DNA of 64,000 bases, taken from sequence record PZ053912.1. One strand, 5' to 3'. Below are positions 4,250-52,297 of the stretch, piece after piece; positions within the stretch are counted from its first letter, which is position 1; each line of letters begins with the position of its first letter. The translations under genes and the position numbers were made by a program. The notes beneath the pieces are model-generated. The model did not search any database, was not told where the DNA came from, and saw only the letters and a program-made list of their open reading frames with translations. This DNA is from a phage.

Positions 4250-5410
4250 TCATTCCGGGTACCTCAAAGCGTCATCAGAGTTAGTTATATCAATAATAGA
4301 TATAGAGTTTTCTGCTAACCCATTTTTAGATAACTGACGTTTATAATATCTTTCACAATATGTACACGTCGTCCCGCAGATTTCATTAGCACAATCGAAA
4401 TCTGGATGTCTGAACCACCTTTTTTCTAAAAAGCCGTCTAACAAAGAGGTTTCAATATTTACTGTATGTGAAAACTCAATTTCGTTTTCAAGAGTGAAAA
4501 TAGTCTCTAAAGGCTTCCACAGTTCTAACAAATTACCTTCAAACTTTTCAGAAGCGTATGCTTCAAGAACTTTCAAAATGTAGTCTGTGCTACCTGTACG
4601 TCCTGAAACTTTGAATTGAGTGATACCAATATCATTATAAAGTTTCAAATCTTGAGGACGAACAAAACGAGTTCTCAACCAGTTAAATGGGTCTGTATCA
4701 CGAGCTTTAATACAGTGCTGCATAGGATATCCGTTTAAGGATTTAGCATCATCAGCTGTAACATCAGTACTATGGAAAATATAGCAAGAGTCACGATAGC
4801 TACAATGTGTTGTATACCCTTTACCAGCATTAGAACAGAACTCATTTACAAGAACTTCAAATATTATATTGTTCTTATTGCAAAACTCTGCTGCACGCTT
4901 CAGGAAAGAAACTGAACGGTTCTTATGAATTCCACAGCAGACCTTTTTGATATTATATTGGTCATGCAAATATTTGATTTGAGTTACAGCATCGACATGT
5001 AGAATTGTTGAAACTTCAATCTCAATGTCTTTATTGACTTCACGAACAATTTCCATAACAACAGGGTTAGCGATAGTAATACGCCATACGCCTATTGACC
5101 AAAGATACTGAACATAATCCTGAATAGCTTTCTTCTTCCACTCAACTAGTTCTCTTTTTGAACCAGGATTTATCGTGTTGAGTGTATAGTTAAAGCAAAT
5201 ACCTAATTCGTTACAACGTTTAACGTAATCTTCTAACATCTTTTTGTCAACGTCAGGAAGCCTAAAATCAGGTCTGGCTGCTACAAAAGCCATTTCTCTT
5301 GTAGAGCCGTATACTTCATTTATCAAGCTATTAGGATAAGTTTTATTGAGCTCTACGATTTTATCAAGAAGAGCTAAATCAAAATTCGTTCCGATTTTAA
5401 AAGTATTCAT
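4250..5410 (-). CDS. Cys-rich enzyme-like protein of unassigned family; possible Fe-S protein
   Basis: 386 aa; Cys clusters CSNAGKGYTTHCSYRDSC and C-terminal CANEICGTTCTYC (contains CxxxCxxC); lies inside the sugar-nucleotide gene block. Confidence 0.45.
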   Translation of the reverse strand: MNTFKIGTNFDLALLDKIVELNKTYPNSLINEVYGSTREMAFVAARPDFRLPDVDKKMLEDYVKRCNELGICFNYTLNTINPGSKRELVEWKKKAIQDYVQYLWSIGVWRITIANPVVMEIVREVNKDIEIEVSTILHVDAVTQIKYLHDQYNIKKVCCGIHKNRSVSFLKRAAEFCNKNNIIFEVLVNEFCSNAGKGYTTHCSYRDSCYIFHSTDVTADDAKSLNGYPMQHCIKARDTDPFNWLRTRFVRPQDLKLYNDIGITQFKVSGRTGSTDYILKVLEAYASEKFEGNLLELWKPLETIFTLENEIEFSHTVNIETSLLDGFLEKRWFRHPDFDCANEICGTTCTYCERYYKRQLSKNGLAENSISIIDITNSDDALRYPE

Positions 5411-51367: not shown

Positions 51368-51368
51368 C

Positions 51369-51396
51369 AAAAAAGCCCCAACCTTTCGGAAGGGGC
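51369..51396 (-). terminator. Rho-independent terminator (GCCCCUUCC-GAAA-GGUUGGGGC plus U6)
   Basis: Seen directly; same element as 35106-35135. Confidence 0.6.
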
Positions 51397-51440
51397 TATA
51401 TACCTTGTTGGGGTTTCCACCTACTAAGGCAAGTGTTTGT

Positions 51441-51531
51441 ACGAAACGCCGGGATTCGAACCCGGTTATTAAGCAGTTGACGCTACTCAATATTTTTAAA
51501 AGGCCATATCTCGACCATATCCGAACGTTCC
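51441..51531 (-). ncRNA. tRNA-like element: canonical T-arm and a 7-bp acceptor stem can be drawn but no convincing D or anticodon arm; degenerate tRNA or stable-RNA 3' end
   Basis: Minus strand CCGGG-UUCGAAU-CCCGG followed by CGUUUCG, which pairs with CGGAACG 91 nt upstream. Confidence 0.3.
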
Positions 51532-51700
51532 GTCAAAAACGCTACTCGGCTTACGGCAAAGATATTTCCTCGAATCGATAATTCTTTGCGCCGTTTCTGC
51601 TGTGATGTAAGGGGATATTAACAAATCATAAAGATTTATTAAGACCAGTCCTTACTCAGGGAACATCAGTCCGACGACTTGCCGGTAGCGACCCGGCTTC

Positions 51701-52045
51701 TTATTTTGACATATCATCAATTTGTTCTCTACGTCTACGCCATAGATTAATTACTTCATCAACACATTCAGCATTTGGTATATGACGACAATAGTATAGT
51801 GATTCGCGTTTCTGGAACCGATGTTGTAATGGAATTTCGTTTAAAAGGTCTTTACGGTCAAAGTATTCAAAACTAGTTAACCCGGAACGGTTTTTAAGAA
51901 ACTTCCAATGTCCGAATTCATTTTGAAAATAAACGTAATCAGCGTGTTGATATAACGAATTAATCAACCGATCGGAAATAACTGTATCCTGTTCGTTAAA
52001 ATAAAACGTTAAATCATGAACTACCAAATAAATATTGCCTTTCAT
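51701..52045 (-). CDS. Hypothetical protein in the tRNA region
   Basis: ORF 51701..52093 trimmed to MKGNIYLVV so that it does not overlap tRNA-Arg. Confidence 0.45.
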   Translation of the reverse strand: MKGNIYLVVHDLTFYFNEQDTVISDRLINSLYQHADYVYFQNEFGHWKFLKNRSGLTSFEYFDRKDLLNEIPLQHRFQKRESLYYCRHIPNAECVDEVINLWRRRREQIDDMSK

Positions 52046-52055
52046 ATTTTCCTCA

Positions 52056-52132
<77 letters not shown>

Positions 52133-52136
52133 ATGC

Positions 52137-52210
52137 CTCGAATTGGTGACCCTGGCTGGTTTCGATCCAGCTACCTATCAGTTATGAGCTGACAGCTCTC
52201 CCATTGAGCT
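52137..52210 (-). tRNA. tRNA with CAU anticodon (Met, or Ile if lysidine-modified)
   Basis: Cloverleaf drawn by hand: acceptor GGCCCUG/CAGGGUC, D-arm GCUC/GAGC, anticodon loop CUCAUAA, T-arm GCUGG-AUCGAAA-CCAGC, encoded CCA. Confidence 0.8.
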
Positions 52211-52297
52211 ACAGGGCCTAAATAACTTTCTATTATGAAAGGCACTTTAGAGTACCTTTGGTAATAGAGGGTATGAATTAATAATAACACATAATTC

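Follow-up and report, generated by a model that had tools for sequence, protein, structure and literature searches.

The minus strand of positions 51441-51704 in phage record PZ053912.1 very probably carries, one after the other, orthologues of rnaD and rnaC, the genes for two small stable RNAs of phage T4. The statement covers the identity, the structure and the gene boundaries of the two elements and does not extend to their function. The DNA analysed, hereafter the window, is a stretch of 64,000 nucleotides (nt) of this record, and all positions refer to that whole stretch. BLAST of 51380-51705 (minus strand) matches about 800 records of T-even phages. The match to the T4 record MT984581 (92% identity over 301 nt) lies on top of the features rnaD ('small, stable RNA; species 2 RNA') and rnaC ('species 1 RNA'). 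The T4 tRNA-region record X03016 places species 2 RNA at 4615-4734 and species 1 RNA at 4741-4877, the latter spanning 137 nt from CGAUUCG... to ...CGUUUCGU. Alignment and coordinate transfer from T4 put the rnaD orthologue, equivalent to the 120-nt species 2 RNA, at 51704-51585 (86% identity to X03016 4615-4734) and the rnaC orthologue at about 51577-51441. The latter has 137 encoded nt, from C1 (51577) to U137 (51441), of which 135 are identical to X03016 4741-4877 over the full length (two differences).

The 1-kb stretch around these genes is 96-99% identical to the RB69-like Mosigvirus coliphages 308Ecol101PP, JS09 and HX01, and by this similarity the source is an RB69-like T-even phage of the genus Mosigvirus. 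An earlier interpretation made from the letters of the window (the sequence-only reading) had proposed either a decayed tRNA or a stable RNA with a tRNA-like end, and had pointed to the T4 tRNA cluster for comparison. The alignment with T4 matches base for base to rnaD and rnaC, which are annotated as species 2 and species 1 RNA in two T4 records, and so bears out the second proposal; the tRNA-like piece that had drawn attention is the 3' two-thirds of rnaC. Both RNA genes are already known, having been sequenced in T4 in the 1970s-1980s, and the phage simply carries their orthologues, which as a discovery is of limited weight. The comparative fold presents RNAC, the RNA encoded by rnaC, as strongly constrained over about ten T-even genera and set within tRNA arrays, neither an oddity of T4 nor a relic.

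RNAC is a 137-nt tRNA-shaped RNA with a four-arm cloverleaf. The cloverleaf is already present in the minimum free energy (MFE) fold of the 139-nt form (z = -4.55 against shuffles), and RNAalifold returns an identical fold from 11 and from 16 homologues, with compensatory changes at 26 of 42 and 23 of 38 pairs, respectively. Pair counting finds 92.4% of cells paired across 44 tested pairs, compared with 40-52% in slid controls, and 26 compensatory pairs. Across 500 shuffles the observed value is never reached for four of five measures, and for the remaining one, further pair types, it is reached by 9. The homologues come from Tequatrovirus, Mosigvirus, Gaprivervirus, Kanagawavirus, Moonvirus, Karamvirus, Tegunavirus, Marfavirus, Gelderlandvirus and Kagamiyamavirus, together with one phage without genus assignment. 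A covariance model built from the 16 homologues scores the window copy at 140.3 bits (E = 3.6e-34), detects no other copy in the 64-kb window and finds one copy in each rnaC-bearing locus; every copy is 136-140 nt long.

The two ends of RNAC pair with each other in an acceptor stem of 7 base pairs (bp) (RNA positions 1-7 with 130-136). Its 5' strand CGAUUCG (51571-51577, minus strand, as for all parts of both RNAs) pairs with the 3' strand CGUUUCG (51442-51448), leaving tandem U.U mismatches at pairs 4 and 5. The 3' strand directly follows the T stem and is itself followed by U51441 in the discriminator position and then by ACAA. Pair 3 is A-U in three of the 16 homologues (the T4/RB69 group) and G-C in 13, and pair 2 is G-C in 15 and A-U in one, phiR1-RT. 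In phiR1-RT both U.U positions are replaced, by U-A and C-G, giving a perfect 7-bp stem; in TH15 one is replaced by U-A. The adjoining T arm, CCGGG-UUCGAAU-CCCGG (51465-51449), which the sequence-only reading had correctly picked out, has a 5-bp stem and a 7-nt loop with the tRNA consensus UUCRA. It is 100% paired among the homologues, with compensatory changes at two of its five pairs. Stacked on this arm, the acceptor stem completes the 12-bp 'top half' of a tRNA. The Enterobacter phages CIP9 and MY742 have UGCAUGC in place of the UUCGAAU loop and keep the stem and the remaining RNA (rnaC at 1507-1644 of locus L003 and at 599-736 of locus L029, respectively).

The other half of the molecule departs from tRNA. 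A long arm of about 70 nt (51501-51570), recovered by the MFE fold, RNAalifold and the pair counts, takes the position of the D arm. From its base, AGG (51570-51568) against CCU (51503-51501), it continues in an extension of about 60 nt made of three further stems (51565-51506) and ending in the loop UUGACG. Compensatory changes occur at 16 of the 20 pairs in the three outer stems. In KLB31, fGh-Ecl01, MY02, NM4.3, Ursula, Kosakonia 305 and Melville the sequence of the arm is unrelated while the hairpin and its length are the same, and the homologues are therefore not recent copies of one sequence. An 8-nt single-stranded linker, UUUAAAAA (51493-51500), whose last four A's and the following U (AAAAU) are invariant, leads from the long arm to a 10-bp arm in the anticodon-arm position (51467-51492). 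Here 51492-51483 pair with 51476-51467 and close a hexaloop; compensatory changes are found at six of nine tested pairs, and the arm coincides with the stretch annotated 'pot. stem-loop structure' in X03016. One unpaired A separates it from the T arm.

Canonical tRNA (RF00005) and RNAC thus share an end-to-end 7-bp acceptor, a 5-bp T stem with a UUCGAAU loop, a four-helix junction and a location in tRNA arrays with tRNA-like spacers. RNAC differs in its hairpin of about 70 nt for the D arm, its 10-bp stem and 6-nt loop for the anticodon arm, its 8-nt A-rich linker, its 1-nt variable region and the tandem U.U in its acceptor. Neither a canonical D arm (3-4 bp, GG loop) nor a canonical anticodon arm (5 bp, 7-nt loop, U33) is found in RNAC, and ARAGORN and RF00005 report nothing on it. 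Since it has no anticodon loop, RNAC cannot decode. As a separate observation, the rnaC of the T4/RB69 group contains two copies of GAGUAGCGU, one in the long arm (51547-51539) and the other in the 10-bp arm (51488-51480).

A different acceptor stem had been proposed in the sequence-only reading, with a 5' strand beginning at 51531 and no D arm or anticodon arm foldable between the two strands. On the latter point the present folds agree. The strands of that stem can indeed pair, ACGGAAC (51533-51527, starting two bases beyond 51531) forming six Watson-Crick pairs and one G.U with GUUUCGU (51447-51441), but the pairing is not a conserved one. Its 80% pairing among the 11 homologues comes mostly from invariant bases; it shows no compensatory change, and its two central pairs are broken in 6-7 sequences. 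Its 5' strand is used by the hairpin stem GCGUUUU/GGAACGU inside the long covarying arm, where five of six pairs are compensatory, and the conserved partner of the 3' acceptor strand is the true 5' end of the RNA, 44 nt further upstream. ARAGORN and Rfam at gathering scores find tRNA-Met and tRNA-Arg only, and nothing at 51441-51700. Neither RNAC nor RNAD has a family in Rfam, whether gathering or permissive thresholds are applied. The best permissive match is to tRNA-Sec (RF01852; 16.6 bits against a threshold of 47, E = 3.3), in an alignment that also uses the same unsupported acceptor stem.

The two terminal loops of RNAC most likely kiss, to judge from their covariation, and would thereby hold the body closed as a bundle of two helices. 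UUGACG (51531-51536), the loop at the tip of the long arm, and CGUCAA (51477-51482), the hexaloop of the 10-bp arm, are exact complements, and all six pairs are possible in 11 of 11 sequences. The loops have changed together twice, to UUGAUG/CAUCAA in phiR1-RT and to UUGGCG/CGCCAA in the Marfavirus phages MY02 and Clarke; exact complementarity together with covariation in two lineages points to a kissing-loop contact. The covariation score of the loops is reached by 0 of 500 shuffles, and slid controls have 17-50% of cells paired. In five further homologues and 15 IMG/VR copies the loops are again complementary, with pairs already seen and most of them UUGACG/CGUCAA. A count of helix lengths would fit a kiss within one molecule: the 10-bp arm, the 6-bp kiss and a 5-bp apical stem would add up to about 21 stacked pairs, and the rest of the long arm would supply about 20 layers back to the junction. 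No published description of the contact was found in a search that did not take in the original RNA papers, and X03016 marks the 10-bp arm only.

Across genera, rnaC occupies slots in tRNA arrays. In Moon it takes up exactly the space that separates tRNA-Met from tRNA-Gly. Its neighbours are tRNA-Trp and tRNA-Gly in fGh-Ecl01, Pet-CM3-4 and Melville and tRNA-Phe and tRNA-Trp in EcS1, and in CIP9 and MY742 it comes after tRNA-Met. The upstream flank, compared in 18 homologues, usually consists of the ...CCA end of a tRNA, an A/U-rich spacer of 5-6 nt (AAUWAU-like) and C1. The spacer AAUUAU (51578-51583) stands between rnaD and rnaC in the window. Here, as in T4, rnaC lies 3' of rnaD and the tRNA genes and 5' of the terminator of the tRNA unit, on the same strand. 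Nearly all genera have ACAA directly after U137, though the sequence further downstream differs; the four bases are UCAA in phiR1-RT and CCAA in Marfavirus, whose rnaC copies encode U-CCA.

As far as tested by sequence searches, RNAC appears to be specific to T-even phages. A first IMG/VR search with a hexaloop-based pattern (AGCRTCAACT N8 TAAC NN GG) gave 15 matches that include no homologue and no T-even contig, and a single metagenome scan gave one chance match. A second pattern (CGAGGA ... T arm) matches 18 IMG/VR loci, 15 of which hold a real copy by the covariance model, with no new loop variant. The rnaC of these contigs appears to hold the first pattern as well, so the IMG/VR scan was perhaps not exhaustive for some patterns and negative scans need to be read with care. 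In 185,579 bacterial and archaeal genomes the second pattern has 112 matches; none is confirmed by the covariance model, and thus no cellular homologue is seen. Neither RNA has a BLAST match among 5,426 complete E. coli genomes, and there is hence no evident host origin or extended antisense target.

RNAD is structured in a different way. The fold of the 120-nt RNA has z = -3.50 against shuffles, and in seven rnaD homologues a hairpin at the 5' end precedes a second, long and irregular one whose middle is variable; few pairs vary overall. The 5' hairpin GCCGG-GUCGCUA-CCGGC (5 bp, 7-nt loop), already listed among the hairpins of the sequence-only reading, is present at 51697-51681. Its closing pair is A-U in five sequences, G-C in one and G-U in one, and the other four pairs and the loop are invariant. 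One inner-stem pair changes from U-A to A-U in three of the seven. The partners of the 3' strand of the terminal stem, CGGCGC (51588-51593), are G51678 and 51676-51672, and A51587 comes directly after this strand. Being invariant in the seven sequences, the terminal-stem pairs are neither supported nor contradicted by covariation. The conserved 5' hairpin and the 3' ...GAAACGGCGCA end form two blocks that do not vary among the seven homologues. The body of rnaD runs to A51587, after which T4 encodes CCA and this phage AAG; the 3' end reads GCGCACCA in T4 compared with GCGCAAAG in the window, which lacks the A-CCA ending. Other rnaD homologues vary at the CCA site as well (CCU, CCG, CAG), and the CCA is not a strict trait of the family.

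RNAD was considered as a second tRNA-like RNA on account of its acceptor-like terminal stem and A(-CCA), but it has no T arm adjoining that stem, and the 5' hairpin, although of the size of a T arm, stands on the wrong side for a tRNA shape. Its 5' hairpin loop also contains CGCUAC, which is complementary to GUAGCG in rnaC, where the bases lie mostly in stems and show no variation.

Four other accounts of the region were weighed against an identification as rnaD and rnaC. A decayed tRNA, that is, a pseudogene in which the T arm and the 3' acceptor strand were kept and the rest was lost, is scarcely credible. ARAGORN and the Rfam tRNA models do miss rnaC, its T arm and acceptor appear to be derived from a tRNA, and it sits within tRNA arrays. 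A pseudogene, however, would not be expected to keep a length of 136-140 nt in all copies or compensatory changes at 26 of 44 pairs over about ten genera, some of them in arms that no tRNA has, or to have loop sequences that are invariant or co-vary, and in T4 a stable RNA accumulates (PMC9697503). The kept length and the compensated four-arm fold indicate purifying selection on the structure rather than decay, and this half of the sequence-only reading is not supported. The probability that the region holds small protein-coding genes, as the 'hypothetical protein' features of many GenBank records would have it, is close to nil. Substitutions are compensatory in RNA stems and not synonymous, the open reading frames (ORFs) do not persist from one genus to another, the long arms being completely different, and some of the annotated coding sequences (CDSs) overlap tRNA genes, while T4 records annotate RNAs at this place. 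What speaks for coding is the overlap of the region with ORFs of 42-58 amino acids, all of them mechanical calls (no others overlap it), and the CDS features placed on it in the records of Clarke_MM3, NM4.3 and Ursula.

The remaining two accounts accept a functional RNA. One would make RNAC an unconventional working tRNA, or an aminoacylated tRNA-like carrier that delivers to the ribosome or to a non-ribosomal acceptor. The 7-bp acceptor, the canonical T arm, the U in the discriminator position and the CCA encoded by the Marfavirus copies all agree with this, and a tRNA top half suffices for some synthetases and for the CCA-adding enzyme. It is nonetheless very improbable, given that no 7-nt anticodon loop is present and that the 10-bp stem at its place ends in a 6-nt loop paired with another one, that neither G3.U70 nor a recognisable identity set is present, that the acceptor stem contains a tandem U.U, and that the tRNA and tRNA-Sec models fail. 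The other would treat the region as a purely cis-acting processing or stability module, which guides cleavage of the precursor or shields its 3' end and releases the RNAs as by-products. Punctuation of transcripts by tRNA-like elements is a known principle, rnaD and rnaC come last ahead of the terminator both here and in T4, and the rnaD of this phage starts where the upstream ORF has its stop codon. Against this, rnaC lies in the middle of the array in Moonvirus, Karamvirus, Gelderlandvirus and Kagamiyamavirus, and neighbouring tRNAs already provide processing sites there. A 137-nt body with covarying tertiary loops far exceeds the needs of punctuation, and the RNAs are stable and abundant late in T4 infection, all of which makes a module acting in cis alone unlikely.

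Several observations weigh against the preferred identification of rnaD and rnaC and against the structural and processing model built on it. The ends of both genes in the window are transferred from T4 by alignment, and the T4 records themselves differ by one base at each end of rnaC (139 nt in MT984581, 137 nt in X03016). Most lineages have two U.U mismatches in the acceptor stem, and tRNA enzymes may recognise such a stem less well; the CIP9 lineage is without the T-loop consensus. Just two independent compensatory events back the kissing contact, and covariation reads the same for a contact within a molecule and one between molecules. Conservation of ACAA after U137 is odd for a trailer that is simply removed; possible reasons are a role of the motif as a processing signal and a mature 3' end other than the one assumed. 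The action of RNase P, RNase BN/Z and CCA addition on RNAC is deduced from the fold, the position in tRNA arrays and the T4 literature.

A last point on this side is that the Dhakavirus phages MX01 and EcWhh-1 keep rnaD without rnaC. In both loci (L030 and L031, at about 700-860), ...GCGCACCG directly joins the trailer that follows rnaC in T4 (AACACTTGCC...), which looks like clean excision or insertion of an rnaC module. Given the absence of rnaC from Dhakavirus and the loss of the T loop in the CIP9 lineage, neither feature is indispensable. The two genes are independent modules, and in most other genera sampled no rnaD was seen in the retrieved rnaC flanks.

The function of the two RNAs has remained without an assignment. 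In T4, RNAC and RNAD are late-accumulating RNAs confirmed by Northern blot and described as 'of yet unknown functions' (PMC9697503, 2022). A literature search found no paper that assigns a function to either, and three papers state that it is unknown (PMC3014915, PMC9697503, PMC12685909). Evolution of a T4-like phage on a semi-permissive host gave one convergent single-nucleotide polymorphism in rnaD, which is suggestive (PMC12685909, 2025). On biogenesis, the SegB paper (PMC2330249), summarising Broida and Abelson, describes a T4 primary transcript of about 1.75 kb that stops beyond the species I gene and serves as precursor for eight tRNAs as well as for species I and II RNAs. RNase BN/Z trims 3' tails ahead of CCA addition and so prepares CCA-less 3' ends (PMC4014445).

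In the processing route proposed here, a transcript shared with the tRNAs would be cleaved by RNase P to leave C1 as the 5' end of RNAC; another cut, on the 3' side, would fall after U137, and CCA would be attached by the CCA-adding enzyme of the host. The 137 encoded nt and the three of CCA would make an RNAC of 140 nt, which we take to be the size of species 1 RNA. Some T4 tRNAs reportedly need the host CCA-adding enzyme, a result said to go back to Deutscher, Foulds and McClain in 1974. RNAC occupies a tRNA slot and offers a 12-bp acceptor/T stack of the kind that RNase P, RNase BN/Z and the CCA-adding enzyme recognise.

Non-decoding RNAs with such a top half have precedents. The tRNA-like domain of transfer-messenger RNA (tmRNA) and the bacterial Y RNAs (YrlA) do not decode and keep an acceptor/T-arm mimic that is handled by tRNA-processing enzymes. 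RNAC appears to be neither. ARAGORN reports no tmRNA, no tag reading frame was found, and pair 3:70 is A-U or G-C, not G3.U70. The YrlA model (RF02553) matches on tRNA genes only, at 16 bits against a threshold of 69, and not on rnaC. The ends of YrlA form a Ro-binding stem and not an acceptor, whereas those of RNAC form the acceptor. ROOL and GOLLD are large structured phage or prophage RNAs, typically encoded near tRNA genes, that attain higher-order structure through loop-loop contacts (PMC12286853). They resemble RNAC as structured phage RNAs without an assigned function beside tRNA genes, but have 4-6 times its size, share neither sequence nor fold with it and lack the tRNA shape. Their contacts join separate molecules into cages, whereas the contact in RNAC may be within or between molecules.

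Any function has to accommodate a molecule in which only the tRNA top half, canonical T loop included, is kept and a rigid closed body stands in for the decoding half. It must also account for the conserved tandem U.U and A-rich linker, the abundance late in T4 infection and the dispensability in some lineages. As a best guess, RNAC might tentatively be viewed as a non-decoding mimic of the tRNA top half that engages or titrates a protein that reads the acceptor, the T arm and the CCA end; we regard this as possible, though on balance improbable. The target could be a host defence factor directed at tRNA or a tRNA-processing enzyme. A more specific proposal, and a rather doubtful one, holds that the top half is mounted on a body locked or multimerised by the 6-bp loop contact and serves as a decoy or scaffold for proteins that read the acceptor, the T arm and the CCA end, such as tRNA-damaging defences. 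With pairing between molecules, RNAC would amount to a small phage RNA that assembles itself, in principle like ROOL and GOLLD. Whichever of the two held, it would provide a first functional handle on an RNA unexplained since the 1970s. The loop contact, the tandem U.U and the A-rich linker are mutable features that make the question of species 1 and species 2 RNA function testable.

The genes around rnaD and rnaC all lie on the minus strand. Upstream and in the same orientation are tRNA-Met(CAU) (52144-52218) and tRNA-Arg(UCU) (52064-52140), both found by ARAGORN and Rfam, and between tRNA-Arg and rnaD lies an ORF of 114 amino acids (51701-52045; phrog_3355, function not assigned). The stop codon of this ORF, UAA (51703-51701), falls inside the T4-equivalent 5' end of rnaD, and the 3' end of its mRNA and the 5' end of RNAD would consequently arise from one cut. 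A CDS of the Tequatrovirus IME340 also ends just ahead of rnaD. T4 and this phage have in common the order tRNA-Arg ... rnaD, AAUUAU spacer, rnaC, trailer hairpin and terminator, on the same strand and with the same lengths. In T4, tRNA-Arg abuts rnaD, whereas here the 114-amino-acid ORF intervenes; T4 has eight tRNA genes and this phage two; and the CCA encoded at the 3' end of T4 RNAD is replaced by AAG, as noted above.

Downstream of rnaC, a trailer hairpin (51431-51401) is followed by a second hairpin (51397-51374) and a U run (51373-51368). The whole of 51368-51431 (minus strand) has a fold z of -2.81, is homologous to the 'pot. terminator' of X03016 and is likely the end of the tRNA/RNA transcription unit. 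A simple terminator scan missed the hairpin and U run at 51368-51397, perhaps because the fold has unpaired U's (U.U) within its stem. The sole hit of that scan, on the plus strand at 51681-51697, is the reverse complement of the rnaD 5' hairpin.

Annotation of the region is uneven in public records. rnaC and rnaD are unannotated in most of the approximately 800 related phage records listed. 'Hypothetical protein' CDSs lie on rnaC in Clarke_MM3 (507-753 of L025), NM4.3 (342-515 of L034) and Ursula (362-472 of L035), that of Ursula even overlapping tRNA-Trp; these calls are probably spurious ORFs over an RNA gene. With Rfam lacking a family for either RNA, the covariance model could mend both missing and spurious annotation. 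In the record of Citrobacter phage Moon (NC_027331, 774-2396; L004), the tRNA genes are annotated on the strand opposite to that given by ARAGORN and by the neighbouring CDSs, probably a strand error in the record.

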